Shown here: in pieces, positions 27,090-42,709 of the stretch
Numbering within the stretch: the first letter of the stretch is position 1
How the letters are laid out: each line of letters opens with the position of its first letter
NCBI GenBank assembly: GCA_902797265.1
Contig: CADBSF010000045.1
Coordinates: forward strand, 1-42,971
Origin: an uncultured Erysipelotrichaceae bacterium
GTDB lineage: Bacteria > Bacillota_I > Bacilli_A > RF39 > UBA660
Direction: 5' to 3'
Length of the DNA stretch: 42,971 nt
Translations under genes and position numbers: made by a program
The notes under the pieces: generated by a model
The model's input: only the letters and a program-made list of their open reading frames with translations
Told to the model about the DNA's origin: nothing
Databases searched by the model: none

Positions 27090-27096
27090 TAAGTAT

Positions 27097-27119
27097 AAGA
27101 CTAGATATTCTAGTCTTTT
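27097..27119 (+). terminator. CTAG-family hairpin abutting the next promoter
   Basis: aagactaga-tat-tctagtctt, then TGATACAAT at 27121. Confidence 0.75.
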
Positions 27120-27147
27120 ATGATACAATAATATTAGGAGGGGTGTT

Positions 27148-28422
27148 ATGAAAATATGGATTCGAAATGGATATGTAATATCAATGGATGAAAAAAAAGA
27201 AATCATAACCCAAGAAGATATTGTCATTGAAAATGACATAATTCTATTTATAGGAAAAAATTATAAAGGAAGTTATGATAAAATAATAGATGCCAAAGAT
27301 AGGTATGTATTACCAGGATTAATCAATTGTCATACTCACTTAGGAATGAGTATTTTTAAAGGTACCAATGATAATTATCCATTAGACAAATGGTTAAAAG
27401 AATATATTTGGCCAATAGAAGATCAGTTAACTGATGAAGATATGTATGATACAACCTTATTATCTATCATAGAAATGATAAAAACAGGAACTACTTGTTT
27501 TAATGATATGTATTATAATTGGAAAGGAAGTATGAAAGCTTTTTCTGAAACAGGAATACGAGGAGTCTATGGAAGATGCTTAATTGGAGAAAAAGAAGAA
27601 TGGGATAAAAGAGAAAAAGATTTTGAAGAATTGTATCAGTCAAATAAAAATGATTTAATAAAATTATCGATAGGAATTCATTCTCTATATACAACAAATA
27701 TAGATTCTCTTATAAAAGGAGAACATCTTGCTACAAAATATCATTTGCCAATTCATATTCATTTATCAGAAAACAAAGAAGAAGTGAAAACTATTAAGAA
27801 TCGATATCAGATGGAACCAATCCAAGTATTAGAAAAGTATGGTTTATTAAAGCATAAGATGGTAATTGCTCATGGTACTTTTTTAAGTAAAAAGGAAATC
27901 AATTTAATTAAAGGAAAAGATATAAGTATTTGTACGAATCCTATTAGTAATTTAAATTTAGGATGTGGTATTAGTGATATTAGTAGTTATCGTAAAGAAG
28001 GTATTAATGTTTGTTTAGGTACAGATGGAGTAGGTTCTGGAAATACATTGAATCTTTTTTATCATATGAGTATGGTAGATAATTTACAAAAGGGAATCTA
28101 TCAAGATCCAACGATTATGTCAAGTTATGAAGTATTAAAAATGGCAACGATTAATGGAGCAAAAGCTTTAGGTTTAGAGAATTTCATTGGTAGTCTTGAA
28201 GTTGGAAAAAATGCTGATATCATAATACTAGATATAGATGAAATTGATAAATGTACAACAACTAATCCCATTATTCAAATAGTTCACAATGGCTGGAACA
28301 ATTATGTAGATACAACTATTGTGAATGGAAAAATTGTAATGGAAAAGAAAGAATTAAAGATGAATATTGATATCCATAAATTACAAAATAAAATGAAAGA
28401 AATTCAGGAAAGATTAAAATAA
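27148..28422 (+). CDS. Amidohydrolase, MtaD-like (methylthioadenosine/SAH deaminase family)
   Basis: LPGLINCHTH, EMIKTGTT, HIHLSE, GTDG, GSLEVGKNAD. Confidence 0.85.
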   Translation: MKIWIRNGYVISMDEKKEIITQEDIVIENDIILFIGKNYKGSYDKIIDAKDRYVLPGLINCHTHLGMSIFKGTNDNYPLDKWLKEYIWPIEDQLTDEDMYDTTLLSIIEMIKTGTTCFNDMYYNWKGSMKAFSETGIRGVYGRCLIGEKEEWDKREKDFEELYQSNKNDLIKLSIGIHSLYTTNIDSLIKGEHLATKYHLPIHIHLSENKEEVKTIKNRYQMEPIQVLEKYGLLKHKMVIAHGTFLSKKEINLIKGKDISICTNPISNLNLGCGISDISSYRKEGINVCLGTDGVGSGNTLNLFYHMSMVDNLQKGIYQDPTIMSSYEVLKMATINGAKALGLENFIGSLEVGKNADIIILDIDEIDKCTTTNPIIQIVHNGWNNYVDTTIVNGKIVMEKKELKMNIDIHKLQNKMKEIQERLK

Positions 28423-28438
28423 GAAAGGAAAGAGATAT

Positions 28439-28744
28439 ATGTTAGAAGGAAAAAAAGATAATTTTCAAAAAGAAGTTTTAGAAAGTGATAAGAGAGTATT
28501 AGTAGATTTTAATGCTGGTTGGTGTGGACCTTGTAGAATGTTAAAACCCATTCTAGAAGAGTTATCAAAAACAAGAGAAGATATCAAAATAGTATCAGTT
28601 GATATTGATGAAGAAGAGGAACTTGCTAGTGAATATCAAGTATCTGCTATTCCTTGCATTGTTCTTATGAAAAATGGAAAAGAAGAAAAAAGAAATGTTG
28701 GTTTCTTGTCACGTGAAGAATTAGAAGAATTTTTAGGAGAATAG
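28439..28744 (+). CDS. trxA: Thioredoxin
   Basis: WCGPC active site, 101 aa. Confidence 0.93.
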   Translation: MLEGKKDNFQKEVLESDKRVLVDFNAGWCGPCRMLKPILEELSKTREDIKIVSVDIDEEEELASEYQVSAIPCIVLMKNGKEEKRNVGFLSREELEEFLGE

Positions 28745-28745
28745 T

Positions 28746-29654
28746 ATGTACGATATTATTATTATAGGAGCAGGGCCTGCTGGATTAACAGCTGCCATAT
28801 ATGCCTTACGTGCCGCAAAAAAAGTATTAATATTAGAAGCAAAAGGTTATGGAGGACAAATCATAAATACTTTAGATATTGAAAACTATCCAGGAGAAGA
28901 ACATATCTCCGGATTTGATTTTGCAACCAAGTTAATGAATCAAGTAAAAAATCTAGGAGTGGAGATTCAGTATGAAAAAGCTCTAACAATAAAGAAACAA
29001 AATGATTTTTTTGAAGTTGAAACAACGAAACAATCTTATCAAGGAAAAACAGTTATTCTCGCAACAGGAACAAATACCAAAAAGTTAGGACTACCTAGAG
29101 AAGAGGAATTACTAGGAAAAGGAATTTCTTATTGTGCAACTTGTGATGGAGCATTTTATAAAAACAAAATAGTAGCGGTTGTTGGAGGAGGAAATACTGC
29201 CTTAGAAGACGCTTATTACTTATCTGATTTAGCAGAAAAAGTTTATTTAATCCATAGAAGAGATGAATTTAGAGGAGATAGAAAAACATTAGATAGATTA
29301 AAAGGAAAAAATAATGTTGAAATTATCTACCAATCTATTGTTACTAAATTAAATGGTTCATCAAAACTAGAAGGGATAGAATTGATGAATCAAGATAATA
29401 ATACTATTTCCTTAGATGTAGATGGCTTATTTATTGCAATTGGAAGAAATCCAGAAAATGATATTGTTAAAGATATAGTTACATTAGATGAAAATAACTA
29501 TATTGTTGCGGATGAGAATGGAAAAACAAATCAAGATGGAATTTTTGCTGCTGGAGATAATCGACAAAAAGAATTAAGACAATTAGTTACCGCAACAGCT
29601 GATGGAGCAATTGCTGCCGTTGAAGCAATCAAATATATAAATAATAGAAGATAA
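28746..29654 (+). CDS. trxB: Thioredoxin reductase
   Basis: GAGPAG, CATCDG, GGGNTA, HRRDEFR, FAAGD. Confidence 0.95.
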   Translation: MYDIIIIGAGPAGLTAAIYALRAAKKVLILEAKGYGGQIINTLDIENYPGEEHISGFDFATKLMNQVKNLGVEIQYEKALTIKKQNDFFEVETTKQSYQGKTVILATGTNTKKLGLPREEELLGKGISYCATCDGAFYKNKIVAVVGGGNTALEDAYYLSDLAEKVYLIHRRDEFRGDRKTLDRLKGKNNVEIIYQSIVTKLNGSSKLEGIELMNQDNNTISLDVDGLFIAIGRNPENDIVKDIVTLDENNYIVADENGKTNQDGIFAAGDNRQKELRQLVTATADGAIAAVEAIKYINNRR

Positions 29655-29699
29655 AAAGAATGATAATCTAAACATTAGATAATTGTTTATATGAAATTT

Positions 29700-29728
29700 A
29701 GAATTTGATATTTATCAAATTCTTTTTT
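29700..29728 (+). terminator. Intrinsic terminator
   Basis: agaatttgat-attt-atcaaattct plus T tract. Confidence 0.7.
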
Positions 29729-29929
29729 AAATATAATTAAAATTCTAAAGTCCAAAATGTCATATTAATGCCTAACAAAACAATAATTAGAAACATGATT
29801 AATAAATAGTAAGAAAAAAAAACAAATATGATTTAAATTAGATTTACGTATATTAAAAATAAATTATTTTGAATTGATGAAAATATTGATAAAAATATGA
29901 TATATTATAATTAAGAAAGGAAGTGTTTA

Positions 29930-30538
29930 TTGATGAGTTTAAAGAAAATTTTTAGTTTAGTAATTCCGGGAATTGCATTTTTATTATTTATTAATACATT
30001 CCTACCATTTTATTCAACATCTTGGGCTAGTGCAAATTTATGGAGAATGTCTAAGAGTATTTCGGTATTCATTTTACTAAGTGCCATTGCAGTTGCTGCC
30101 GTATATATCTTATATTTTTTGGGAATACTAAAAGAAAAATTGGTTAGTTATGGATATTTAGGAATTGGATTCCTTGGTTTATTCCATATCGCATATTTTT
30201 TCGATATTGTTGAAAACGGTTCCATTGGACTATGGTTTGGATTAATCTTATCTTTAGGATTAATTGGTTGTTCAATTGTTTGGAACTTCTTAAGTGATAC
30301 TCCATTACCTGCAAAACCAAAACCGGTTCCTCCTACCCCAATTACTCCTAATGGGATGGTTGCTCCACAACAGCCAGTAAATTCTGCACCTGTAGCTCCA
30401 GCTCCTGTTACACAACCAACTGAACCAGTAGTAACTCCAGAGCCATCTACTCCAGCTCCTGCACCTACACCAACAGTAGAAGCACCAAAAGAAATTGCTG
30501 GATATGATCCTCAAACAGGAGCACCTATTTATAAATAA
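29930..30538 (+). CDS. 4-TM membrane protein with Pro-rich tail ending GYDPQTGAPIYK
   Basis: Four hydrophobic segments then a P/A/T-rich low-complexity region. Confidence 0.8.
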   Translation: MMSLKKIFSLVIPGIAFLLFINTFLPFYSTSWASANLWRMSKSISVFILLSAIAVAAVYILYFLGILKEKLVSYGYLGIGFLGLFHIAYFFDIVENGSIGLWFGLILSLGLIGCSIVWNFLSDTPLPAKPKPVPPTPITPNGMVAPQQPVNSAPVAPAPVTQPTEPVVTPEPSTPAPAPTPTVEAPKEIAGYDPQTGAPIYK

Positions 30539-30553
30539 TCATCAATAGTAATT

Positions 30554-30586
30554 GAAAAAGGCAAATAAGTAATATTTGTCTTTTTC
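30554..30586 (+). terminator. Intrinsic terminator
   Basis: gaaaaaggcaaata-agtaa-tatttgtctttttc. Confidence 0.75.
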
Positions 30587-30608
30587 AAATTAAGAAAGAA
30601 GGAATAAA

Positions 30609-31295
30609 ATGAATGAGATAGAAAAAATCTATAAAGAAAATAATCTTCTAGTTAGAGCAATGAATATGCCTTCACTAGGTAGAAATAATAATGAAATAGT
30701 ATATGATTGTACTATTTGGACAAATGAATTTTCTTTTATGAAAAATGAATCTTTTTCTAGTGTTTCTACGACATTAATTATTTCTAATATAGGGATATCT
30801 ACCTATAAAAATATGGGTTATTTAATTGATTCTTCTAAGGCTAATTGTTTTCATATATCGAAAACAGATAGTTCTAGTTCTGGAAATAGATTAGAAGGAA
30901 ATTTTCTTGCTGGTAATCAAGATTTTCAATCAATTGCTGAATTAGCAAATTTTATTATAGAAAATAATTGGAGAGAAATGAATGAAGTTAATGCAGACTT
31001 ATCTTTAAATTCAGTAGTTGGTTTATTTATCAATAAATGTTTCAATCAAGAAAAACTACTAGAAAGAATTCTTATTGCTCAAAAATGCTTAGAAGATATG
31101 TTGGAGATTAAATATCCTATCTATTTATATGATAGTGATAAAGGAACCTTAGAAAAAATAGAATTATCAAAAGAAATTGAAGAGGAAATGATTAATCATA
31201 TGAGAACTACTCAAATGTTTTATTGGCCTGATGAATGTGAATTTCCTATCATAAAAGATATAGGAAATGAAAAAAATAAGTTAACTTTGAAATAA
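30609..31295 (+). CDS. Hypothetical protein (possible ADP-ribosyltransferase-like fold)
   Basis: 228-aa ORF with RBS aaggaa; LLVRA / SVSTTL / MNEV motifs; the fold call is speculative. Confidence 0.7.
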   Translation: MNEIEKIYKENNLLVRAMNMPSLGRNNNEIVYDCTIWTNEFSFMKNESFSSVSTTLIISNIGISTYKNMGYLIDSSKANCFHISKTDSSSSGNRLEGNFLAGNQDFQSIAELANFIIENNWREMNEVNADLSLNSVVGLFINKCFNQEKLLERILIAQKCLEDMLEIKYPIYLYDSDKGTLEKIELSKEIEEEMINHMRTTQMFYWPDECEFPIIKDIGNEKNKLTLK

Positions 31296-31339
31296 TGTGA
31301 TATAATAACAATAGATTAATGAGAAAGAGGAGAAGAAAC

Positions 31340-31846
31340 ATGAAAAAGAAATTATTAATAGTAAGTCTAGTTACTGTATCTATTTTGATGAGTACTGGAT
31401 GTAATAATAATCAAACTAAAAAATACACTTGTAAAAATAATGATTCATCAGATGGAATCCGTTATTTAACTACTTATACGATTGAATTAAATAATAAAAA
31501 GGAACCAATTAAATATATTTTAAAAGATGGATTTGGAAATTATAAGGACAATGAGGAAGCTTATAAAAAATTTTGTGAAGGATTAAAAAAAGCAGAAGAG
31601 AATAATAAAACTAAATATAGTAAAGAGGATTTAACTTATACAGTTACTTGTGATGATAAAAAGAAGGAAGCTTATTATATAGTTACTTATAATCTTTCTA
31701 ATATTAAAGATAAGACTGAATTTAGAAATATTAATACAGAAATAGAAAAATATACTAAAAAAGATGGTACATTTGATTTAGATGCTTGGAAAGAATATTT
31801 TAATACTAGTGAATCAAAAAAAGGACATTATGATTGTGATTTTTAA
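31340..31846 (+). CDS. Cys-containing lipoprotein (paralog of 14890..15378)
   Basis: Start likely 31340 (RBS gaggag); lipobox MSTGC; ends YDCDF. Confidence 0.78.
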   Translation: MKKKLLIVSLVTVSILMSTGCNNNQTKKYTCKNNDSSDGIRYLTTYTIELNNKKEPIKYILKDGFGNYKDNEEAYKKFCEGLKKAEENNKTKYSKEDLTYTVTCDDKKKEAYYIVTYNLSNIKDKTEFRNINTEIEKYTKKDGTFDLDAWKEYFNTSESKKGHYDCDF

Positions 31847-31878
31847 TTGTTATTAAATGAATAAAGGGAGAATTATTT

Positions 31879-32622
31879 ATGGATAAGAAAAAGACAAAAA
31901 ACAATAAAAATATAAAGAAAAATATAAGTAGTAAAAATATTAAGAACACTTTCAAATTATTTATAATATTGCTATTGCTAGGGATTTTCCTTATTATTGT
32001 AGGATTCTTAATGAGAGGTAAAATAGATTATAACGCAGTTTATAAAAAAGGAAATATAACAATTAAAACTTATTTAAAAGAAAAAATAATATATTATAAA
32101 GTAGAAGGTAATGGTATTTTTGTAAAAGGAGAATCTATATTAGAAGACAATAAAGTAGCATTAAAAATGATATCTGGAAATACATACTTAATCTTTAAAG
32201 AAGAAAGGATTGTTATCAAAACAGATTCTATTACTCTAAAGTCTGGAAGTTATAAAAAGACAGATGAGTATAATAAGAAAGAATTTATTCAAGATTTCAC
32301 TGGAGAACAAACGTTTTTAAAATCAGATTTTAATGGAATCTATAAAAATGATGAAAAAACTATTTACGGATACCAAAAAACGAAAAATTCAATAAGAATT
32401 CGCTTTACCTATAATAATTTATTAGCGGATTTAGTATTAGAAAAAAAAGAAGATGAAACCTATTATTTAAAACTATATGATGATGAATATACATTAAAAA
32501 TATTAAATAATTCTATGACATTATCAATAAACACAAAAGATTCATATTTAAAAGAATACGAAGATACTTATCAAAAAGAAGATATTATTGATGAAGAATC
32601 AATTGTAAATTATTTTAACTAA
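31879..32622 (+). CDS. Membrane-anchored hypothetical protein
   Basis: Lys/Asn-rich N-terminus, single TM, beta-rich repeats (GSYKK, GIYKN, DTYQK). Confidence 0.75.
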   Translation: MDKKKTKNNKNIKKNISSKNIKNTFKLFIILLLLGIFLIIVGFLMRGKIDYNAVYKKGNITIKTYLKEKIIYYKVEGNGIFVKGESILEDNKVALKMISGNTYLIFKEERIVIKTDSITLKSGSYKKTDEYNKKEFIQDFTGEQTFLKSDFNGIYKNDEKTIYGYQKTKNSIRIRFTYNNLLADLVLEKKEDETYYLKLYDDEYTLKILNNSMTLSINTKDSYLKEYEDTYQKEDIIDEESIVNYFN

Positions 32623-32638
32623 AGCAATAAAGACTAAG

Positions 32639-32666
32639 AAACACTTTTATAAGAAAGTGTTTTTTT
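32639..32666 (+). terminator. Intrinsic terminator
   Basis: aaacacttt-tataag-aaagtgttt plus T tract. Confidence 0.7.
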
Positions 32667-32706
32667 CTATTAAATAAATGATATAATAAGAGAAATGGAG
32701 GAGTTT

Positions 32707-33651
32707 ATGAAATCTTTATTAGCGATCATTATTCCTTGTTATAATGCCAAAAATACTTTATTTACTACCTTAAGTTCTATTAGTATTCAAGAGAATATTA
32801 GTAACTTTAAAGTATATTTAATTAATGATAAATCTGATTATGATTATCAAGAAGAAGTTACTATCTTTCAAGAACACTTTCCGATTGAAGAAATTCAATT
32901 AGATAAGAATTTAGGTCCTGGTGGAGCTAGAAGAGAAGGAATTTTAAAAACAAAAGAACCATATATCATGTTTATTGATAGTGATGATGTATTATATGAT
33001 GTATTTTCATTAAAAAATCTATATGAAAATATAAAAAATTATGATTTATGTATATCGAGTTTCTTATTAGAAAGAGATCATGTTAGAGTAATCAAAAAAT
33101 ATAATACAATATGGTTACATGGAAAAATATATAAACGAGAATTTTTAGAGAAATATCATATTAATTTTAATTGTACTCGTGCTAATGAAGATAATGGATT
33201 TAATCGTTTAATTCTATTATGTAAGCCTAAAATTCATTTTATAGATAATATTACTTATGTTTATAAGGATAATAAAAATTCCATTACGAGAAAAAATAAC
33301 AGAAGTTATAAAATATTTGGTTTAGAAGGATTTGTTGATAATATGATATGGGCTTTGGAAGAAGCTTTAAAAAGAGGAATTGATTCTTCTTTTATACCAC
33401 AATTAGTAACGGGAGTTTTAGTATCTATGTATTATGATTATTTATTATATAGTGATTTAGAAGAGAGTATTTATATTATTCAATATAGTAAAAAAATATA
33501 TCCTTATTATTTAAAATATCCAAAGATTTCTAAAAATGATTTAGAAAATACATTTAAATATAAAGAACAAGTATTCATAGAAGAAAATAAAAACTATGAT
33601 AAAAAGATTTCTTTTGATGAATTTTTAAGAAAGGTTGAAGACTATGATTGA
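32707..33651 (+). CDS. Glycosyltransferase family 2
   Basis: IIIPCYN, INDKS, MFIDSDD, ED; start 32707 fits RBS ggagga (32695 is the alternative). Confidence 0.9.
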   Translation: MKSLLAIIIPCYNAKNTLFTTLSSISIQENISNFKVYLINDKSDYDYQEEVTIFQEHFPIEEIQLDKNLGPGGARREGILKTKEPYIMFIDSDDVLYDVFSLKNLYENIKNYDLCISSFLLERDHVRVIKKYNTIWLHGKIYKREFLEKYHINFNCTRANEDNGFNRLILLCKPKIHFIDNITYVYKDNKNSITRKNNRSYKIFGLEGFVDNMIWALEEALKRGIDSSFIPQLVTGVLVSMYYDYLLYSDLEESIYIIQYSKKIYPYYLKYPKISKNDLENTFKYKEQVFIEENKNYDKKISFDEFLRKVEDYD

Positions 33652-34435
33652 TATCATTATACCTTGTTATAATTCTCATACTACCATTGAAAAAACTTTA
33701 AATAGTATTATAATTCAAAGCATGAAAGATAAAATTCATGTACTAATAGTAGATGATCATTCCAATCATAATTATGATTCTATATTAGCTAAATATCAAA
33801 AATATCTTCCTATTAATCAAATCTCTCTAGAATTAAACAGTGGTTCTGGGATTGCTAGAGAAAAGGGAATAGAAATAACAAATAATAAATATATCATATT
33901 TTTAGATAGTGATGATACATTTTATGATGTAGATGCGGTAAAAAATTTATATGATAAAATAGAAGAAGGATATGATGTGGTAACTTCTCAAGAATTCGAT
34001 CAAAGAATTGGTCTATTTTTATATCAAAACGGAAACTTACATGGAAAGATATATGGTAGAAGTTATTTAGAAAAAAATGATATTCATTTTAATATTTCGA
34101 GATTTCATGAAGATAATTACTTTCATAATTATGTTAGAATAAGTGGAGCTAATATAACATCTATTTCTGATACTACTTATTTTTATTCTAATAATAAGAA
34201 TTCAATCACTCAAAAGAATTATGATTCTATGAAAAATATGGATTTATATTTATCAAATCTGAAAGAACTTCTTTTAATTGCAGAAGATAGAAATTATGAT
34301 AAAGATATAGTAAGACTATATTTAGAAGAAAAACAAAGATATTTAAATAATACTTATCATAAACTACAAGAGGAAGAAAAAGATTCTTTATTAGAATTAC
34401 TAAAAAAATATAATTTAGAGTTTATTATAGATTAA
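33644..34435 (+). CDS. Glycosyltransferase family 2 (tandem paralog)
   Basis: IIIPCYN, VDDHS, FLDSDD, LHGKIY, ED; ATG overlaps upstream stop. Confidence 0.9.
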   Translation: MIDIIIPCYNSHTTIEKTLNSIIIQSMKDKIHVLIVDDHSNHNYDSILAKYQKYLPINQISLELNSGSGIAREKGIEITNNKYIIFLDSDDTFYDVDAVKNLYDKIEEGYDVVTSQEFDQRIGLFLYQNGNLHGKIYGRSYLEKNDIHFNISRFHEDNYFHNYVRISGANITSISDTTYFYSNNKNSITQKNYDSMKNMDLYLSNLKELLLIAEDRNYDKDIVRLYLEEKQRYLNNTYHKLQEEEKDSLLELLKKYNLEFIID

Positions 34436-34457
34436 ATAGAAAATAAAGGAGGTATTT

Positions 34458-35300
34458 ATGTTAGGAGATAGAGATATTCAGAATATAATGGCAGGAGGAA
34501 GACATGAGTCTCAAATAGAGGGATTGAATGAAGAAATTCAATCAAAAAACATTGTAAGTTTTTCCTATACAGGAACAGATTTTTATGTAGGAGCAAAGCG
34601 AGAAAAGAATAAAGTAAAAATTATTTGTAATGGTGGAGGAAAATATAATAGAAGAGATGGTAGTTTATTTTCTATTGTCTATGAAACAGAAGATGATTCT
34701 ATTTTTCCTCTTTTGCAACAAGTAATCGATGAAAATCATGAGACAAGAGGAAATGGTCATTGTGTTCATGTAGATGGACTTCCTGGAGGTATAGGAGATC
34801 GATTAGAAGTAGAATATGAATCGGGAGAAAAAATATATAAAAGTTCCAATCAATTTCAAACTGTGATGTTTGAGTCTTCTAAAAAATTCTATGAACTATT
34901 TCATGAATTTGTACTAAAAGAAGGATATGATTTTACAACAGCTGGATCTAATGTAAAATTATTTGATGATGCAGACTATGAATATCTACAAGGAACATGG
35001 AAAGGAACTAGTTTTGGAAGAGAGATTGTTGTTACTTTTACGGGAAATAAGGTAACAATAACGGTAGACGAAACAATAACAGATGAGAATGTAGAATATA
35101 CTATATTTCAAGGGTCAGTTGTTTCAAATCAATTAATAGAAGGAAAAGAAAAAGCAGAATCTTATCATGATTATGAATTGTTCAAAGGGGTATCTACTTT
35201 TTCAAAAAAGAATTGGTTTACTATGACTGGATATCATTTAGGTGATTCTTATTCCTCTTTTGATTTACATAATTTTGATAAAAAGAAGGAAGAAGAATAA
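34458..35300 (+). CDS. Hypothetical protein
   Basis: 280-aa ORF with strong RBS aaggagg. Confidence 0.8.
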   Translation: MLGDRDIQNIMAGGRHESQIEGLNEEIQSKNIVSFSYTGTDFYVGAKREKNKVKIICNGGGKYNRRDGSLFSIVYETEDDSIFPLLQQVIDENHETRGNGHCVHVDGLPGGIGDRLEVEYESGEKIYKSSNQFQTVMFESSKKFYELFHEFVLKEGYDFTTAGSNVKLFDDADYEYLQGTWKGTSFGREIVVTFTGNKVTITVDETITDENVEYTIFQGSVVSNQLIEGKEKAESYHDYELFKGVSTFSKKNWFTMTGYHLGDSYSSFDLHNFDKKKEEE

Positions 35301-35360
35301 ATATCATATTTTTTGAAAATGAATTTACGAGAACTTTAAATAATGATATAATAAGTTAGA

Positions 35361-37550
35361 GTGGTTATGAAAAAGAATAGTGTGATTAAAAAATTAAATT
35401 TGATAAGAGTAATATCTTGTTTAGCTGTATTATTTTATCATGTTGGTTTATTAAAAGGTGGATATCTTGCTGTATGTACCTTTTTTGTGTTGACAGGTTA
35501 TTTAGCAATCTTATCAAATCATAAGAAAGAAAATTTTTCCTTAAAAGACTATTATCTAAAAAGAATTAAAAAAATCTATTTACCTTTAATTATCGTTCTT
35601 TTTACAACAATAGGAGTATTAACAATTTTACCAAAAATCGAATATTTAAACTATAAACAAGAAGTATTATCCATATTAGGAGGATATAATAATTTTTGGC
35701 AATTAAATGCAAAATTAGATTATTTTGTAAGATATATTTCTTCTCCTTTTATGCATTTATGGTATATTGCCATTATCTTACAGTTCGAATTGTTTTTTCC
35801 AATTATTTATCTTCTTTTTCATAAAATGGAAAGAAAAGTACATAGAACTCTTCCTATCGTTGTAACATTTATGATTAGTGTTATTAGTTATATCGGTTTT
35901 TATAAATTAGTCGGAAGTAATCAATTAATGACTGCATATTATCATACTTTAACTAGATTATTTTCTTTATTTTTAGGGATGTTTATAGGATTGATTCATA
36001 CTTCTTATAAGCCATTTATTATCAAGAGTGAAATACTAGGAAACCTTCTATTCTATATTTATTTAGGAATACTTTTTGTTTTCTTTATTATAATTGACTT
36101 TCAATCTAGTTTCTTTCCTATTAGTATGTTACTTGTAACTATAATTTCTATGAGAATGATATCTTATAGTAGAATAGAAAAGAAAGAAACTTCTACTTTT
36201 GATATTCTAATCAATGAAATATCTAAGATTAGTTATGAAATCTATTTAGTACAATATCCTGTTATCTTCATTTTTCAAAATACTAAATCTATTCTTAAAA
36301 TACCTAGTATTATTGTAGTTACTTTTATTCTTTCTATTATTCTTCATAGAGTTTTTCATAAAACAAAGAAAAATAAAATCATTCAAATTCTATTATGTTT
36401 GATGCTTGTACTTACTACTATATATGGAGGAATCCAATTTATTATTAGTAAAGATAATACAAAAGAAATGAAACAATTAGAAAAAGACTTAGAAAATAAT
36501 CGATTAATTATTGAAAAAAGACAAGAAGAATTTATGAAAAGACAGCAGCAAGAACAAGATGATTGGGAATCTGTATTAAAAGATATAGAAAACAACGAAA
36601 AAGATTTGGAAAATACCGTTAGGAATTTAAATATTGTTGGTATTGGAGATTCCATTATGGAACTGGCAGTCAATGATTTGATTAAAGAATTTCCAAATGG
36701 ATATTTTGATGCAAAAACAAATAGAAGACCTAGTCAAGTAAATGCTTTATTAGAAGAGTTGAAAAGTAAAAATTTACTAAGTAATGTTATTTTATTTAAT
36801 GTAGGAACTAACGGAGAATTTTATCAAAAATATACGGATCAAATCATGGAAACTTTGGGTGATCGAATGGTATTTTGGGTAAATGCAACAAATGCAGATT
36901 ATGATGATTTTAATGATCGTTTATATGCTCTTAAAGAAAAATATTCCAATATTCATATTATTGATTGGGTGAGTGTTGCGAATGCTCATCCAGAGTATTT
37001 GATTTCTGATAAAGTTCATCCTACTGTTTATGGATGTAAAATCTATGCTCAAACGATATTTCAAGCTATTTTAAAAGATTATCAGGATGAATTAGAACGT
37101 CAAAAAGAAATCAAATTAAAAGAACATCAACAAGAAGAAGAAAAGAAGATAACTTTTATTGGAAATGATTTATTACTAGGACTTTATGAATATATGGAAG
37201 AAGATTACCCTAATGCGAAATTTATGATTGATTCTAATTTTTCTTATCAATCATTAAAGAATAAAATGAAAGAGGAAAAAATGAATCATAATCTTGTATT
37301 TGTATTTGATAAAAAGGCTGACTTAACGAGTGAAGATTATTTAAAATTATTAGAATCTTATCAAGACTATAATATTTTTATTATTGATTTAGATAATCGA
37401 ATTAAAATTAAGGAATCTAATATTAAAATTATTTCAATAAAAGAAGTCATTTTAAATGATAAAGATAATACAATTGATGGAATTCATTTAACAGAAAAGG
37501 GAAATCAACTTTTGAAAAAAATAATGAAAGAAGAAATTCCTGGAGAATAA
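35361..37550 (+). CDS. OatA-like acyltransferase-3/SGNH protein with a second degenerate SGNH domain
   Basis: FFVLTGYL, RIKKIY, HLWY, SYEIYL; SGNH GDS..GTN..DKVH; second domain FIGND..DGIH. Start may be 35367. Confidence 0.88.
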   Translation: MVMKKNSVIKKLNLIRVISCLAVLFYHVGLLKGGYLAVCTFFVLTGYLAILSNHKKENFSLKDYYLKRIKKIYLPLIIVLFTTIGVLTILPKIEYLNYKQEVLSILGGYNNFWQLNAKLDYFVRYISSPFMHLWYIAIILQFELFFPIIYLLFHKMERKVHRTLPIVVTFMISVISYIGFYKLVGSNQLMTAYYHTLTRLFSLFLGMFIGLIHTSYKPFIIKSEILGNLLFYIYLGILFVFFIIIDFQSSFFPISMLLVTIISMRMISYSRIEKKETSTFDILINEISKISYEIYLVQYPVIFIFQNTKSILKIPSIIVVTFILSIILHRVFHKTKKNKIIQILLCLMLVLTTIYGGIQFIISKDNTKEMKQLEKDLENNRLIIEKRQEEFMKRQQQEQDDWESVLKDIENNEKDLENTVRNLNIVGIGDSIMELAVNDLIKEFPNGYFDAKTNRRPSQVNALLEELKSKNLLSNVILFNVGTNGEFYQKYTDQIMETLGDRMVFWVNATNADYDDFNDRLYALKEKYSNIHIIDWVSVANAHPEYLISDKVHPTVYGCKIYAQTIFQAILKDYQDELERQKEIKLKEHQQEEEKKITFIGNDLLLGLYEYMEEDYPNAKFMIDSNFSYQSLKNKMKEEKMNHNLVFVFDKKADLTSEDYLKLLESYQDYNIFIIDLDNRIKIKESNIKIISIKEVILNDKDNTIDGIHLTEKGNQLLKKIMKEEIPGE

Positions 37551-37555
37551 TTATA

Positions 37556-37580
37556 TGATATAATAAATAAGTAAGGAGGG
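37556..37580 (+). promoter_or_regulatory. Extended -10 promoter and RBS of the Cys-rich peptide gene
   Basis: TGATATAAT 37556-37564; AAGGAGG 37573-37579. Confidence 0.8.
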
Positions 37581-37586
37581 ATAATA

Positions 37587-37736
37587 ATGGAAGAAAAGAA
37601 ATGTAATTGTGGACCAGACTGTACTTGTGGATGTCAGGAAGGAAAAGAATGTACTTGTCAAGATGAAAGTTGTATATGTGGTAATGAGTCAGAAAAGTGT
37701 GAAGACAATTGTACATGTGGATGTCATAATCAATAA
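37587..37736 (+). CDS. Metallothionein-like 49-aa Cys-rich protein (not in ORF track)
   Basis: MEEKKCNCGPDCTCGCQEGKECTCQDESCICGNESEKCEDNCTCGCHNQ; 13 Cys, no aromatic residues; own promoter, RBS and terminator. Confidence 0.85.
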   Translation: MEEKKCNCGPDCTCGCQEGKECTCQDESCICGNESEKCEDNCTCGCHNQ

Positions 37737-37737
37737 G

Positions 37738-37762
37738 AAAAGCAGAATTTATCTGCTTTTTT
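37738..37762 (+). terminator. Intrinsic terminator
   Basis: aaaagcaga-attta-tctgctttt plus T. Confidence 0.8.
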
Positions 37763-37853
37763 CATGGAGAAAAAAATTGAAAAAAGAAGAAAAATCTATA
37801 TTGTTTAAAAAAGATAACCATGTTATAATGGTAAATAGTAGGAGGAGATTGAG

Positions 37854-38270
37854 ATGAGTAAAAAAGTAGTTTTTCTATTAATTGCTATTGTATGTATTTT
37901 ATTAGCTGGATGCGCAATTTTCTCTTATGATATAGGAAAAATTCCTATTAATAAAACAGATTTTATGATTGGTCGCTGGAAATATGTCAGACAAATTACA
38001 AAAAAAGATAAAGAAGGATATATAAAAGATGCAATCATGGAAATAGATGAGAATGGAAATTGTACCTATTATGGAAAATATACAACTAATCCTGATGGTA
38101 CTGGAACAGAATTAGATTTTAATTATAGTGGGAAATGTTACTTTAATAGGATTCAAACGAAAATTAAAATGGAAAATGATAAAGCTATTATTTTAGATTG
38201 GGTAACTTATCAAAGAAGAAAAAATACAATTGTTATTGGAAATGTAGAATATTATAAAGAAAAAAAATAA
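37854..38270 (+). CDS. Probable lipoprotein, lipocalin-like
   Basis: LLAGC lipobox; MIGRWKY (GxW) motif. Confidence 0.65.
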   Translation: MSKKVVFLLIAIVCILLAGCAIFSYDIGKIPINKTDFMIGRWKYVRQITKKDKEGYIKDAIMEIDENGNCTYYGKYTTNPDGTGTELDFNYSGKCYFNRIQTKIKMENDKAIILDWVTYQRRKNTIVIGNVEYYKEKK

Positions 38271-38283
38271 AAGGATTTGTATT

Positions 38284-38640
38284 ATGAAAAGAAAAGTAAT
38301 TATGATTCTATTAGGAATCTTTCTTTGTTTGATTTGCTTATTTCTATTTCTTATTGTAACGAATAAGACTTTTTTGAAAACTGTTTATATTGGTAAGCAA
38401 AATCAAGAAATATTTATTCCTAGATTTTCTTATTTTCAAAAAGAATGTTGTTTTACGGCTGCTACATTCTTTTCGTTGAAATCTAAAAAACAATTACAAA
38501 AAGAAATAGATAACTATCTAAAAGAATTTACTTTTTTTGAGAATAATGAAACTTATGGATATCAAAAAGGAGATTTATTTATTCAAAAATATGAAATAGA
38601 AGAGTATGTTTTTTATCGAAAGATAATTATAACTTATTAA
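38284..38640 (+). CDS. Membrane-anchored hypothetical protein
   Basis: N-terminal TM, 118 aa. Confidence 0.7.
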   Translation: MKRKVIMILLGIFLCLICLFLFLIVTNKTFLKTVYIGKQNQEIFIPRFSYFQKECCFTAATFFSLKSKKQLQKEIDNYLKEFTFFENNETYGYQKGDLFIQKYEIEEYVFYRKIIITY

Positions 38641-38714
38641 AGGGTTACATTTGTAATCTTTTTTTCTTTGAAATTCATTCTTATGATATAATAGAAATAA
38701 AGACAGGTGATAGA

Positions 38715-39590
38715 ATGAATCAAACGATACTGGAAGTAAAACATTTAAAAAAATACTATGGAGATAAATTAGGAATAGAGGATGTTTCTTTTTTCCTAAA
38801 AGAAGGCGAAATCTATGGTTTTATAGGACCTAATGGTGCTGGTAAATCAACTACGATTCGTACGATTATGGGGCTTATTCAAAAAACAAAAGGAGAGATT
38901 CTTTTCCTAGGAGAACCATGGACTCAAAATGAAGGACTAAGAAAAGAAAAAATAGGCTATCTTCCTAGTGAAATTCATTTATATGATTCTATGACAGTAA
39001 AAGAAATACTAGATTATCATGAATCCTTTTATAAAAAAGATATTCATAAGAATAGAGAGATGCTTACTAAAAAATTAAAAGTACCAGAAACTAAAAGGAT
39101 TGAAGATTTATCTTTAGGAAATTTAAAAAAAGTTGGAATTATTTTAGCTTTGATGCATGAACCTGAATTAATTATTGTAGATGAACCAACTAGTGGATTG
39201 GATCCTTTAATGCAACAAGTTTTTCATAATTTATTAGTAGAAGAAAAAGAAAAAGGAGCTACTATTTTATATTCTTCTCATGATTTAAATGAAATATCTA
39301 ATATTTCAGATAGAATAGGTTTCATAAAAGATGGGAAAATAATCAAAGAAGATACGATGGATAATATTAAAAAAGATAATTATACCTATTTAACCATTCA
39401 ATCAGAAGATATTCAAAATATCAAGAAAGAATTTGATTTGAAGATTATTAAAGAAGATAATAATACAATTAAATATCTTAATAATATGGATTATAATCTG
39501 ATTATTAAAAAATTAGTAAAGTATAAGATAGAGAAATTATTAATTGAACAAATTAGTTTAGAAGAACTATTTTCTAAATATTATAAGTAG
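38715..39590 (+). CDS. ABC-2 type transporter ATP-binding protein
   Basis: GPNGAGKST, LSLGNLKK, VDEPTSGLDP, SSH. Confidence 0.93.
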   Translation: MNQTILEVKHLKKYYGDKLGIEDVSFFLKEGEIYGFIGPNGAGKSTTIRTIMGLIQKTKGEILFLGEPWTQNEGLRKEKIGYLPSEIHLYDSMTVKEILDYHESFYKKDIHKNREMLTKKLKVPETKRIEDLSLGNLKKVGIILALMHEPELIIVDEPTSGLDPLMQQVFHNLLVEEKEKGATILYSSHDLNEISNISDRIGFIKDGKIIKEDTMDNIKKDNYTYLTIQSEDIQNIKKEFDLKIIKEDNNTIKYLNNMDYNLIIKKLVKYKIEKLLIEQISLEELFSKYYK

Positions 39591-39598
39591 GTGTTATT

Positions 39599-40390
39599 AT
39601 GTTGAAGAAAGAATTTAAAGATAATTTCAAATCATTTCTTATTTGGACTACTGTATTAATTGTTATATTTTTAATTGTATATAGTGTATATCCTTTTATC
39701 ATCACAGATGATACAGTAAAGAATTTAGATGAAATGATGAAAGTATTTCCAAAAGAATTATTAAAATCATTTAATATGGATATTACAACAATTAATACAG
39801 CATATGGTTGGTTAAAGTCTGAAGGTTTTATGTTTGTCTATCTAATTGTTGGATTTTATTCTTCCTTATTAGGTTTACAAATTCTATTAAAAGAAGAAAA
39901 TGATAAAACGATAGAGTATTTAATATCTCTTCCTATCAAAAGAAATATTATAGTAAGAAATAAAATTGTTGTTAGTGTTATCTATATCTTTTCTATGATT
40001 TTCTTATTAGGAGTCTTTAATTATATTGGATTATCGTTAAGTGGAAGTTTTAATCAAAAAGAATTTTTGTTAATTAGTATTACTCCTTTGTTTGTTGCTT
40101 ATCCTTTGTTTGCTTTCAATTTGTTCTTATCTGTATTTTTACATAGAACAAAGAAAACGTTAGGGATTAGTTTAGGACTTGTTTTCTTCTTTTATATCAT
40201 AAATATATTATCAGAATTATCTACCAAAATAGATGGAATCAAATATTTTAGTATATATACATTAGCTGATATCAGAAATGTGATATCAAAATGTTCTATT
40301 AATCCTATTTGTATTGTGATTAGTTGTACGATAACAATATTATTTATTACTTTAACTTATTTATTTTATCAAAAGAAAGAATTAATATAG
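39599..40390 (+). CDS. ABC-2 type transporter permease
   Basis: Six TM segments; KEENDKTIEYLISLPIKR motif. Confidence 0.9.
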   Translation: MLKKEFKDNFKSFLIWTTVLIVIFLIVYSVYPFIITDDTVKNLDEMMKVFPKELLKSFNMDITTINTAYGWLKSEGFMFVYLIVGFYSSLLGLQILLKEENDKTIEYLISLPIKRNIIVRNKIVVSVIYIFSMIFLLGVFNYIGLSLSGSFNQKEFLLISITPLFVAYPLFAFNLFLSVFLHRTKKTLGISLGLVFFFYIINILSELSTKIDGIKYFSIYTLADIRNVISKCSINPICIVISCTITILFITLTYLFYQKKELI

Positions 40391-40404
40391 AAAGGAATTA
40401 TTAT

Positions 40405-41313
40405 ATGAATAAAAATAAGAGATATTTATGTGTTGGACATTCTACGTATGATACGACTATACCTGTTAATGAATATCCAAAAGAAAATATTAAACATCGA
40501 GTTGAATACAAAATTGAATGTGGAGGAGGACCTGCTGCAAATGGGGCTTATCTTCTAGCAAAATGGGGAATGGATGTTACGATTTGTTCCATTATTGGAG
40601 ATGATTACTATGGAGAACAAATAACGAAAGAGTTCAAAGAGATAGGTGCTGATGTTACTTATCTAGAAAAAAGAAAAGATTATCATACTTCTAGTAGTTA
40701 TATTATTGCGAATATGAGTAATGGTTCAAGGACGATTCTTACAACAAAGAAAGAAAAGATTAGAAAATTATCAAAAGAAGTTAATGAAAAAGCAGATGTA
40801 ATCTTGATTGATGGTGAACATCCAGAAACTGCTAGCGAAGTATTAGATAAGAATCCAAATGCAATCAGTGTAATTGATGCGGGAAGACTAAATGATGATA
40901 CGAAATATTTAGGAAAAAAAGTAACTTATGTAGTATGTTCAAAAGATTATGCAGAAGAATTTACGAATCAAAAAATTGGAGAAATTAATTTAGATCAATT
41001 AATGAATATTCATAAGCAATTAGAAGACTATTTTCAAACTAATATTATTATTACATTAGAAGGAAATGGAAGCTTTACAAAAATAGATAATATCTATCAA
41101 ATAATTCCAACAATTAAAGTAAGAGCGTTAGATTCTACAGGAGCAGGAGATATTTTCCATGGAGCTTTTACTTACTTTATTGGAAATGATTATTCATTAA
41201 AAGAAGCTATTCGAATGGCATCTATTACGGCTGCTATTTCAGTTACTAGGGTTGGAGCAAGATACTCTATTCCTATGTTATCGGAAGTATTAGGATATGA
41301 TAACGCTATATAG
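40405..41313 (+). CDS. PfkB-family carbohydrate kinase
   Basis: GGGPAAN, IGDDYYG, DSTGAGDIFHG; start likely 40405 (RBS aaagga). Confidence 0.92.
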   Translation: MNKNKRYLCVGHSTYDTTIPVNEYPKENIKHRVEYKIECGGGPAANGAYLLAKWGMDVTICSIIGDDYYGEQITKEFKEIGADVTYLEKRKDYHTSSSYIIANMSNGSRTILTTKKEKIRKLSKEVNEKADVILIDGEHPETASEVLDKNPNAISVIDAGRLNDDTKYLGKKVTYVVCSKDYAEEFTNQKIGEINLDQLMNIHKQLEDYFQTNIIITLEGNGSFTKIDNIYQIIPTIKVRALDSTGAGDIFHGAFTYFIGNDYSLKEAIRMASITAAISVTRVGARYSIPMLSEVLGYDNAI

Positions 41314-41551
41314 TAATTTACCAACATTAGATCTTCATGGAATCGATAGAGATTATGCTAAAATATTAATTAATGATTTTATCGAAGATAATTATCGAAT
41401 TAAGAATGAGAAAATAATAATTGTACATGGAAATGGACAAGGAATAATCAAAAAAACAACACAAGAAACATTAAAAAATAATAAATATGTAAAGGAATAT
41501 AAAATTGATAATTTTAATACAGGTATTACAGTCGTTGAACTTAAAAAGTAA
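41297..41551 (+). CDS. Stand-alone Smr (MutS2 C-terminal) domain protein
   Basis: LDLHG, IVHGNGQGIIK, NTGITVV. Confidence 0.9.
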   Translation: MITLYSNLPTLDLHGIDRDYAKILINDFIEDNYRIKNEKIIIVHGNGQGIIKKTTQETLKNNKYVKEYKIDNFNTGITVVELKK

Positions 41552-41553
41552 CC

Positions 41554-41582
41554 TTGACAAAGAAAAGGTGGAGTGCTAAAAT
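41554..41582 (+). promoter_or_regulatory. sigmaA promoter
   Basis: TTGACA-17-TAAAAT with TG extension. Confidence 0.75.
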
Positions 41583-41611
41583 AATCCTCAAATTCTGTAG
41601 GGGGTTCGTGT

Positions 41612-42121
41612 ATGTATACAGAAGACTTTGAAAAAAGAGGATATTCGATTCGAAATGTTATTTTTAAATTATTGATAGTTGTTATTTTGGCTTGGATAAT
41701 TGCTAAATTATTACCAAGATTTATCGTACCACAATGGAATCAATTAAATGGTAAAGATGATTGCAGGACAAGTAATTGTGATTCTTCTCTTAGCATGCTA
41801 TCATCACAGACTTATGTAGATAATATTGAAAGAATGAAAAATTCAGCTATATCATATTTTACAAGTGATAAATTACCTAAAGAACTAAGTGATTTTTGGA
41901 AAGTAACATTAAAAGATATGATAAATGATCATATTATAGAGGAACTGGTTGATAAAAATAATAAAGTAGTTGATCAAGAAAAAAGTTATGTTAAAATTAC
42001 CAAAATAAGTAATGGATATGTACTAGAAGTATATATAAAAGATTCAGAAAAAAGAGATTATAATATTTTTCATTTAGATCATTATCGTTATTGTAGTGAT
42101 TATTTATGTCAAAAAAGATAA
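41612..42121 (+). CDS. Membrane-anchored hypothetical protein with Cys pairs
   Basis: N-terminal TM; VTLKDMI..HII motif; C-terminal YCSDYLC. Confidence 0.75.
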   Translation: MYTEDFEKRGYSIRNVIFKLLIVVILAWIIAKLLPRFIVPQWNQLNGKDDCRTSNCDSSLSMLSSQTYVDNIERMKNSAISYFTSDKLPKELSDFWKVTLKDMINDHIIEELVDKNNKVVDQEKSYVKITKISNGYVLEVYIKDSEKRDYNIFHLDHYRYCSDYLCQKR

Positions 42122-42212
42122 TAAGTATTTGATAGGGTTCATTATTATTGTTCATTATTACTTAGTATTAACCATATATAGTTAGATTATTTGAAAATAT
42201 AATTTAAAATGA

Positions 42213-42241
42213 TTGACAAAATCCAACAATTGTAGTATAAT
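42213..42241 (+). promoter_or_regulatory. Consensus sigmaA promoter
   Basis: TTGACA-17-TATAAT. Confidence 0.85.
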
Positions 42242-42289
42242 ATGTGTACATTGATGGTATAATAGGCAACAAGTTTAGGGGGTTGAATT

Positions 42290-42709
42290 ATGAATAATAA
42301 TTATATATTTGAATACTTAGATGAAAATGATTTTAGAAAGAAAGAAAGGTCAGTAAGAAAATATAACATGCTTGCTTATAAGAAGTTAACCTTTACATAT
42401 TATCCAGAATTAAGAAAAGGAACCTTTTTAGGTAAGAAAGTAAAAGAAGATGTAAAAGCAAAAACGGAAAATTATGAATTACAATTACCTACTGATGAAT
42501 TATTTAAAAAAGTTCATGGTCCAATTATTTTACATTATACTGTTTACACAGAAAAGAATATTATCTTACTAACAAATATTACTCCAGAAGGTATATTAGA
42601 TGAAGGACATAGAGCAGAATTGTCTACTTATAAAGGAGTAATGATTTCTAAAACAAATCCAGAAAAGGATATGTTCAAAATTAATTTATTAAATATGTTA
42701 GAAAAATAG
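42290..42709 (+). CDS. Hypothetical protein
   Basis: 139-aa ORF with consensus promoter, G-rich RBS and downstream hairpin. Confidence 0.8.
   Translation: MNNNYIFEYLDENDFRKKERSVRKYNMLAYKKLTFTYYPELRKGTFLGKKVKEDVKAKTENYELQLPTDELFKKVHGPIILHYTVYTEKNIILLTNITPEGILDEGHRAELSTYKGVMISKTNPEKDMFKINLLNMLEK

Follow-up and report, generated by a model that had tools for sequence, protein, structure and literature searches.

Does a 49-codon open reading frame (ORF) rich in cysteine codons, lying downstream of an acyltransferase gene in an uncultured Erysipelotrichaceae bacterium, encode a protein, and if so, what would that protein do? The frame, P0001, lies in a 42,971-nucleotide stretch of contig CADBSF010000045.1 (assembly GCA_902797265.1); we refer to that whole stretch as the window. 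Sequence comparisons indicate that P0001 is a conserved gene, more than a product of chance, and we consider it probable that it encodes a cytosolic metallothionein of an unnamed family, MymT-like in function, with Cu(I) as the favored metal and Zn or Cd as possible ones. The gene is built as follows.

37556..37564, plus strand: TG-extended -10 element TGATATAAT, read from the sequence.
37573..37579, plus strand: Shine-Dalgarno sequence AAGGAGG, 7 nt upstream of the ATG, read from the sequence.
37587..37736, plus strand: coding sequence of P0001, 49 codons plus TAA, with 13 Cys; assigned from the open-frame translation, relatives and purifying selection.
37602..37658, plus strand: full seven-cysteine (7-Cys) module (CNCGPDCTCGCQEGKECTC), spanning residues 6-24, which recurs as the family's conserved, portable unit.
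37671..37724, plus strand: C-terminal Cys region, variable among relatives and spanning residues 29-46; it holds a CxC pair and a truncated second module (C-x3-CTCGC).
37736..37762, plus strand: intrinsic-terminator-like hairpin with an 11-bp stem and a 5-nt loop, its 3' arm made up of the U run, plus two further U.

The initial annotation had described a self-contained unit of -10 element, AAGGAGG, 49-aa ORF and terminator, and all four parts were confirmed. It had also held that the ORF track missed the frame and called overlapping shadow ORFs instead. Overlapping ORFs do exist, one of 89 aa at 37447..37716 on the minus strand, antisense across the end of the acyltransferase gene, and one of 82 aa at 37609..37857 on the plus strand, but an identical peptide is present both in the ESM Atlas and in a collection of proteins, so P0001 must have been called by at least one gene caller.

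By script count, the cysteines of P0001 stand at positions 6, 8, 12, 14, 16, 22, 24, 29, 31, 38, 42, 44 and 46. They make up 13 of the 49 residues (26.5%) and include five CxC pairs; CTCGC occurs twice, there is one His (position 47), and Phe, Trp and Tyr are absent. The N terminus is hydrophilic (MEEKK), and therefore P0001 has no signal peptide; no leader sequence is seen either. The composition and the missing signal sequence are thus as first annotated. Residues 6-24 form one full module; a CxC pair (29 and 31) follows, and then a truncated second module (C38, then C42-x-C44-G-C46). The module consensus is CxCx3CxCGCQ[ED]GKxCxC, with seven Cys, and relatives hold one to six modules each. 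In the C-terminal region C42, C44, G45 and C46 are at least 90% conserved, and the length of this region differs among relatives. An AlphaFold model of P0001 contains no secondary structure and hence no helix (predicted local distance difference test score, 59.6); such a lack of predicted fold is what would be expected of a metallothionein, but is no proof of one. With 49 aa, cysteines in CxC pairs and no aromatic residues, P0001 has the size and composition of a metallothionein in the operational sense; that it would also bind several metal ions in thiolate clusters is suggested indirectly by the HMA/CopZ, SlyD-tail, CsoR and CDF contexts described below.

We searched 5.8 billion proteins with P0001 and obtained 40 candidates, 38 of which, including the query, scored E <= 0.01. 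The 37 other proteins (34-77 aa) begin with nearly the same 24 residues as P0001 and share MEEKKCNCGPDCTCGCQEGKECTC; among the 38, one source name is "hypothetical protein" and the remainder are unnamed. An exhaustive search of representatives gave 16 proteins at E <= 0.001. Small-ORF homologs with conserved Cys spacing, which the initial annotation had suggested looking for, thus exist, and their seven-Cys spacing is fixed. An alignment was made of 29 of the 38 proteins, leaving out P0005, P0007, P0010, P0015, P0019, P0020, P0021, P0022 and P0026, which look frameshifted or begin at an upstream ATG. Its invariant columns are C6, N7, C8, C12, G15, C16, Q17, G19, C22 and C24, and residues 6-24 of P0001 match every one of them. 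A pattern scan of one genome per species yielded 249 stretches, of which 151 were confirmed by tblastn and 80 were kept as loci L011-L090. Species-representative genomes therefore contain the family at no fewer than 151 loci. By script, a module-bearing ORF was found in 76 of the 80 kept loci, the exceptions being L045, L071, L073 and L086.

Selection on the module was assessed from 95 copies of its 19 codons taken from related loci, 88 of them distinct as DNA. Pooled over these codons, the proportion of synonymous differences (pS) is 0.95, which is saturated, and that of nonsynonymous differences (pN) is 0.11, giving pN/pS = 0.115; the test is partly circular, which counts against our reading, because the search pattern itself prescribed 10 of the 19 positions and the loci had been found through similarity at the protein level. 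Each module Cys codon is about evenly TGT or TGC. Positions left free by the pattern are likewise conserved with synonymous variation, namely E/D at position 13 (88 of 88), K at position 15 (86 of 88) and T at position 18 (87 of 88, in four codons). Such synonymous variation combined with fixed residues at free positions indicates constraint at the level of the protein rather than of the DNA.

These data bear on the simplest alternative, that P0001 is no gene but a chance ORF or a decayed remnant. The frame is very short, the window copy has no functional partner alongside, and in G029, the sole relative with a recognizable ortholog of the acyltransferase, a different gene follows 33 nt downstream and the small gene is absent there. 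Against this stand an intact start, ribosome site and stop, the 37 relatives, the low pN/pS at saturated synonymous sites and the 151 confirmed loci, and we regard the chance that P0001 is not a gene as next to negligible.

The hosts of the 80 kept loci are labeled as Bacillota-type (43), alphaproteobacterial (15), Akkermansia/Verrucomicrobiales (10), Bacteroidota (6), Actinomycetota (4), Planctomycetaceae (1) and unclassified (1). These are labels of metagenome-assembled genomes (MAGs), some of them doubtful: the L018 record is labeled Muribaculaceae, yet its small protein and csoR are the same as those of L006 (G007), which belongs to the window's Bacilli genus. One host strain is cultured, Propioniciclava tarda DSM 22130. 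The initial annotation had suggested an undescribed metallothionein family in Bacillota; the family is indeed conserved, unnamed and often found in metal-related contexts, but it extends over several phyla and is not confined to Bacillota. A tblastn search of plasmids and phages gave no match, although the low-complexity filter may have masked the query.

The possibility of a match to an already described family had been raised at the outset, and no Pfam, NCBIfam or PDB family matches P0001. Its best Pfam hit is Metallothio_5 at E = 3.4, with 8.3 bits against a cut-off of 25. Metallothio_5 reached E <= 0.01 in two of the 29 relatives, no other Pfam family did so, and a 238-aa multi-module protein scored 31 bits to Metallothio_5 with no single stretch passing. 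No NCBIfam family was found for P0001 or for three relatives. Sequences in the PDB gave no match at E <= 10 with the single sequence and none at E <= 1 with a profile. The nearest ESM Atlas clusters are named "hypothetical protein", and the nearest cluster with another name, at 0.83, falls below the level that counts. In the literature on bacterial metallothioneins and cytosolic copper sequestration, supplements excluded, we found no description of the module family and no text containing its peptide motifs; papers retrieved through the host taxa were unrelated microbiome studies.

Few bacterial metallothioneins have been characterized, as the initial annotation had stated: two reviews mention SmtA/BmtA and MymT, and in addition the Csp proteins, which are unrelated (PMC7558416; PMC11672702), and list as cytosolic copper-sequestering proteins MymT, CutC, CopZ, Csps and SmtA-type metallothioneins (PMC11672702; PMC7558416). 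MymT is described there as a 4.9-kDa protein that was discovered as a non-annotated ORF and is predicted to bind up to six Cu(I) (PMC7558416). Like MymT, P0001 is, as read from its sequence, tiny, Cys-rich and cytosolic, and both are often unannotated. MymT belongs to the regulon of RicR, a CsoR paralog, and putative control by a CsoR-family repressor may be a further likeness for those 16 of 76 module loci in which adjacency, a C-H-C signature and promoter boxes suggest it, but not for the window copy. The module family differs from MymT in its Cys pattern, a repeating 7-Cys unit fused to other proteins, in its hosts, which are gut and rumen anaerobes of several phyla whereas MymT belongs to pathogenic mycobacteria, and in that the window copy is without any CsoR. 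The two are set apart here by description: no sequence link between them was shown, and P0001 is without an NCBIfam or Pfam match.

SmtA and BmtA (PF02069, Metallothio_Pro) resemble P0001 as small bacterial Cys-rich proteins expected to form a metal-thiolate cluster, and a minority of module loci adjoin Zn-type transport genes. SmtA has a zinc-finger-like core with conserved His and aromatic residues. P0001 lacks such a core, has no aromatics and contains a single His, and the sensors beside module genes are CsoR-type, with no ArsR/SmtB-family match among the flanking ORFs scanned. PF02069 itself gave no match for P0001 at E <= 10 and none in the 29 relatives at E <= 0.01. The initial annotation had likened P0001 to eukaryotic metallothioneins. 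Fungal copper metallothioneins and the CxC-x4-CxC copper clusters of CopY/Ace1-type proteins are suitable points of comparison, and Cu(I)-thioneins are typically rich in CxC and poor in His. P0001 is similarly CxC-dense, His-poor, aromatic-free and without a fold of its own; the resemblance is one of composition only, the Metallothio_5 score being below the cut-off.

Other comparisons are more distant. The Csp proteins are described as pre-folded four-helix bundles that form tetramers (PMC7558416; PMC11672702). Csp1 and Csp3 would share with P0001 the cytosolic sequestration of Cu(I) by many Cys thiolates, which for P0001 is a proposed role; P0001 differs in having 49 residues, a model without a helix and no Pfam match. 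The C-terminal His/Cys tail of SlyD and the His/Cys-rich extension of Helicobacter GroES are metal-binding tails. The module too sits as a tail or head on housekeeping proteins, but those tails are His-rich and of low complexity, whereas the module is sharply conserved, Cys-based and also occurs as a free-standing gene. A thioredoxin-metallothionein chimera published in 2026 was considered as a member of the same family and rejected, since it has an SmtA-like domain and not the 7-Cys module (PMC13578184); its "new" metallothionein domain is 98% identical to a Synechococcus metallothionein. Taken together, sequence comparisons support the view that the module family is an undescribed metallothionein-like family with a portable module, a third beside SmtA/BmtA and MymT.

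The module is also found within longer proteins. In all four actinobacterial proteins tested (L061, L067, L068 and L083) it lies N-terminal of an HMA domain. It lies N-terminal of GrpE in all five proteins tested, and four others look alike by eye; in gut Alphaproteobacteria it precedes a membrane segment and a SIMPL (DUF541) domain in three of three tested.

GrpE fusions: L031 6001-6669, L039 1849-2532, L040 6001-6693, L043 5962-6723 and L055 5992-6828.
SIMPL fusions: L020 5992-6861, L059 5989-6828 and L075 4021-4941.

The GrpE extensions, from MAGs of Bacilli and Clostridia, are long and contain one or more modules and further CxC repeats; a module-GrpE protein could be a metal- or thiol-sensing nucleotide-exchange factor. 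L060 (5314-6078) encodes a 254-aa FKBP/SlyD-like protein with four CGCGxHHHH(H)DEG repeats and a shorter fifth, ending in a 7-Cys module. G024, a genome of the window's genus, carries a histidyl-tRNA synthetase (HisRS; L103 3-1586) with three modules as a C-terminal tail, and in G020 and G013 module-like matches lie within frames of about 500 aa that may equal this tail. A search for longer proteins gave 15 matches, including Com_YlbF (5), GrpE (3), HMA (2), DUF4298 (2) and PNP_UDP_1 (1); for the Com_YlbF, DUF4298 and PNP_UDP_1 fusions, one of each was re-run. A further protein, P0048 (141 aa), has a signal-peptide- or lipoprotein-like N terminus followed by several modules, and as judged from this sequence would be a family member that is exported.

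The shortness of P0001 and its many cysteines, together with the signal-peptide-like start of P0048, could be taken to mean that it is the precursor of a modified or secreted Cys-rich peptide, that is, a ribosomally synthesized and post-translationally modified peptide of the SCIFF/ranthipeptide kind or a disulfide-rich bacteriocin. P0001 itself has no leader or signal sequence, and the module is fused to cytoplasmic proteins. Moreover, neither a maturase, of the radical-SAM or another type, nor a dedicated exporter was found among the family-matched neighbors (19 window ORFs, and 150 flanking ORFs of 41 loci). We therefore hold such a precursor to be very improbable.

The neighborhoods of module genes point to metal-related functions, above all to copper, as far as can be judged from sequence. 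Pfam was run on those 150 flanking ORFs, a scan that left out the flanks of L002-L006 and L069 and two ORFs of L089. A profile built from seven neighboring repressors was run on all ORFs of the loci, and it placed a CsoR-family gene no more than 456 nt from the small gene or fusion, in the same orientation, in 16 of 76 loci (L011, L014, L016, L018, L019, L030, L037, L052, L054, L061, L062, L067, L068, L069, L083 and L090). PF02583 confirms CsoR in six of the 41 flank-scanned loci and in L083. The gene order differs with the host: csoR precedes the metallothionein gene in Bacilli-type MAGs, where the csoR stop often lies a few bases before the metallothionein ribosome site; the metallothionein gene precedes csoR in gut Alphaproteobacteria; and in Actinomycetes the order is csoR, module-CopZ, copA. 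Cys46, His71 and Cys75 are kept in all seven aligned repressors, at spacings of 25 and 4 residues, which we take to equal the spacing of the Cu(I) ligands Cys36, His61 and Cys65 of Mycobacterium tuberculosis CsoR. The best NCBIfam match of these repressors is RicR, far below the cut-off.

Operon promoters in these loci contain recurring boxes, ATATACCCCC[TG]NATTTAC in six Bacilli-type loci, a TATACTnTAnGGGGTATA-like box in four alphaproteobacterial loci and ATACCCCCAAGGGGTAT in P. tarda; these C5/G4-tract boxes are putative CsoR-type boxes. Behind ATACCCCCAAGGGGTAT, P. tarda carries csoR, a gene for four modules plus an HMA domain, and a gene for an 821-aa P-type ATPase. The ATPase has an HMA domain and CPC, YN and MxxSS motifs, which are presumably a Cu(I)-type signature.

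In other loci the surroundings are of a different kind. Akkermansia-labeled loci have a non-metal context of Band_7, an uncharacterized gene, the metallothionein gene, a sulfatase-family gene and RmuC. A PP-loop ATPase (ATP_bind_3) and DUF362 occur together just 3' of the small gene in three loci (L022 2019-3805, L023 3167-4940 and L074 516-2305), and DUF362 occurs alone in a fourth (L058 1503-2390), which may reflect either common descent or function.

The distribution of the gene adds a further lead. Within the order, a module gene is present in 13 of 301 genomes, including the window's genome, G000, and in 11 of 127 genera (E <= 1e-5); it was found in none of 24 genomes from other families of the class. 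Within the genus, module coding DNA is present in seven of 46 other genomes, each time in a different context, and the small gene is thus accessory. Across the genus, a synteny comparison matched only the coding region of the small gene, the DNA being otherwise too diverged. The eight bearers are G000, G033, G018, G022, G011, G007, G067 and G024. An HMA domain is found in one of these (G018, a weak match), as against 28 of the 39 non-bearers (Fisher p = 0.003), and among genomes at most 90% complete in one of eight bearers as against 10 of 16 non-bearers (p = 0.03), p values that overstate the contrast because kin do not count as independent genomes; the bearers' assemblies also average a lower completeness. 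In non-bearers the HMA domain usually lies in a CopZ-sized frame beside a frame of about 730 aa. G020 and G013, with their module-like matches, are also without HMA. Genes of the CsoR family, five in all, occur in four of 47 genomes of the genus, and three of the five lie directly beside the small gene; no Cys-rich ORF was found within 2.5 kb of the CsoR paralogs of G066 and G022 C23.

Several points weigh against a copper metallothionein. The complementarity of module and HMA may reflect shared ancestry and incomplete assemblies and is a lead, not a result. CsoR is absent beside the module in 60 of the 76 loci. In the window, no metal gene or sensor was found among 19 ORFs (25743-42709, Pfam), and no C5/G4 CsoR-type box lies at the promoter, the sole GGGGTAT of the window being at 35187. 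A CDF exporter of the Zn/Cd/Co type adjoins the gene in L014 and L047, ZnuA is found two genes from the module gene in L077, the fusion to a SlyD-type tail points to Ni or Zn, and the Bacilli-type CsoR neighbors carry an extra conserved N-terminal Cys-Cys pair (L011 5687-5986, L014 386-673, L016 1762-2079 and L005 1200-1487), by which their metal preference may be shifted so that they are not Cu-specific. Finally, the fusions to GrpE, HisRS, YlbF-like, PNP and SIMPL proteins say nothing metal-specific.

Part of this list would suit a protein of the same class with a divalent physiological metal, that is, a Zn(II)/Cd(II) (or Ni/Co) buffer, SmtA-like in function, with CsoR-like neighbors that sense a signal other than Cu(I). 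Besides the CDF and ZnuA neighbors, the csoR-MT-CDF order in L014 (MT, metallothionein) and the module that terminates the His-rich SlyD-like tail fit such a buffer, and the N-terminal Cys-Cys pair of the Bacilli-type CsoR could give a four-coordinate site. On the other hand, the C-H-C signature and its spacing fit a Cu(I)-sensing CsoR, and the fusion that stands out most clearly is the one with CopZ, from a csoR-copZ-copA operon with a pump bearing presumed Cu(I)-type motifs. The complementary distribution involves HMA-bearing genes of the CopZ/CopA type, and P0001 is CxC-rich and His-poor, as are Cu(I)-thioneins. A divalent buffer thus appears to us rather unlikely, though it is the alternative to which we give most weight.

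The remaining fusions could instead be explained if P0001 were a metal-independent thiol redox or electrophile buffer or a sulfur reserve, the module being a sacrificial or regulatory thiol tag. This would account for module fusions to GrpE (5/5 tested), HisRS, YlbF-like, PNP and DUF4298 proteins and for the redox-type neighbors (C_GCAxxG_C_C, nitroreductase, flavodoxin) of some loci, and the CsoR family includes persulfide and aldehyde sensors. The neighboring repressors, however, retain the His of the C-H-C triad, presumably unlike the persulfide-sensing members, and the links to HMA, CopA, CDF and the SlyD tail are metal-specific. The strictly kept spacing of the module, along with its conserved G, Q and K, also favors a defined cluster geometry over bulk thiols. 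We judge a metal-independent role to be improbable.

Unlike many of its relatives, the window copy is an orphan. The initial annotation had noted that no metal sensor is adjacent, which holds for the window copy, both among the 19 ORFs and in the genome, but not for the relatives, which often lie beside CsoR. Its upstream neighbor, which ends at 37550, encodes a 729-aa acyltransferase-3/GDSL (SGNH-type) protein. Downstream lie two genes for small proteins, with an ABC-2 transporter beyond them.

37854-38270: small protein with a hydrophobic N terminus and a lipoprotein-type LAGC site, no Pfam family.
38284-38640: small protein with a hydrophobic N terminus, no Pfam family.

The stretch 37854-38640 has weak DNA matches elsewhere in its own genome, on contig C41 of G000. 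Farther upstream, 25743-29654 encodes a GGDEF protein, an amidohydrolase and a thioredoxin/thioredoxin-reductase pair (28439-29654); the latter could be an ordinary thiol-redox system, able to keep a Cys-rich peptide reduced. The assembly of G000 is 1.38 Mb in 103 contigs and 77% complete, and in this 77%-complete genome we found neither a CsoR-family gene nor an HMA domain. Its three P-type ATPases all have Cation_ATPase_N/C domains and are therefore no heavy-metal pumps.

Together with its two preceding bases, the -10 element TGATATAAT of the window copy reads TATGATATAAT, a -16 extension of the TRTG type. A scan for two-hexamer consensus promoters does not list a promoter at 37556 because the -35 position (37536-37541) is poor, and the predicted promoter would therefore depend on the TG-extended -10 element by itself; transcription is predicted to start from it. 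Relatives L046, L047, L080 and L021, all without a sensor, also have TGnTATAAT 10-25 nt upstream of the ribosome site, so a short-leader, probably constitutive arrangement appears to be common. AGGAGG-type sites lie at the same distance from the start in most stand-alone relatives. The hairpin at 37736-37762 has a free energy of -12 kcal/mol (z = -3.17, with 1 of 200 shuffles equally good). The scan tool lists it on the minus strand only because the plus-strand U run gets counted into the stem, and hairpins of a similar kind lie 3' of the gene in many relatives. No Rfam family matched 36500-38800 at E <= 1. The G+C content is 34.7% in the small gene and 25.7% in the window.

A perfect 7-1-7 palindrome, ATTATATGATATAAT, at 37550-37564 overlaps the -10 element. 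We considered it as a Fur/PerR-type operator and rejected this, since its right arm is the -10 element and since in L046, L047 and L080 TGnTATAAT is conserved while the left arm is not; the palindrome probably represents nothing more than the promoter.

With regard to function, we favor Cu(I) as the metal of the proposed metallothionein because neighboring repressors have the CsoR signature, the module is fused to CopZ in a cop operon, and it appears to trade off with CopZ/CopA in the genus. The apo-peptide would be unfolded by itself and would fold around soft metal ions, with the thiolates of the 7-Cys module and of the six C-terminal Cys forming polynuclear metal-thiolate clusters that buffer metal in the cytoplasm. 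Cu(I) would be the likeliest physiological metal, with binding of Zn(II) or Cd(II) also possible; by analogy with MymT, the 13 Cys might accommodate an estimated 6-8 Cu(I) or roughly four divalent ions. In many relatives a CsoR-type Cu(I) repressor would switch the gene on, whereas the window copy would be expressed, probably constitutively, from its own strong extended -10 promoter. Sequestration may there replace efflux, as no CsoR, CopZ or P1B-type pump was seen in the assembled 77% of the genome. More tentatively, we can envisage that gut anaerobes use the 7-Cys module as a portable metal sponge in the cytosol, alone, in tandem or attached to abundant housekeeping proteins (GrpE, HisRS, PNP, SlyD-like and CopZ), and that in small-genome Bacilli it replaces CopZ/CopA and provides a copper defence by sequestration only, constitutive here and CsoR-switched in relatives. 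This broader scenario is possible but doubtful.

The module family would represent a third bacterial metallothionein-like family, with a sharply defined module, beside SmtA/BmtA and MymT. It spans several phyla of gut and rumen bacteria, including Akkermansia-labeled MAGs. The guts of livestock and humans carry high copper and zinc loads, and a family of proteins that would sequester such metals and has no name would therefore be missing from microbiome surveys of metal resistance. The fusions of the module and the apparent trade-off with CopZ/CopA in one genus provide testable hypotheses on how bacteria with reduced genomes may handle copper.

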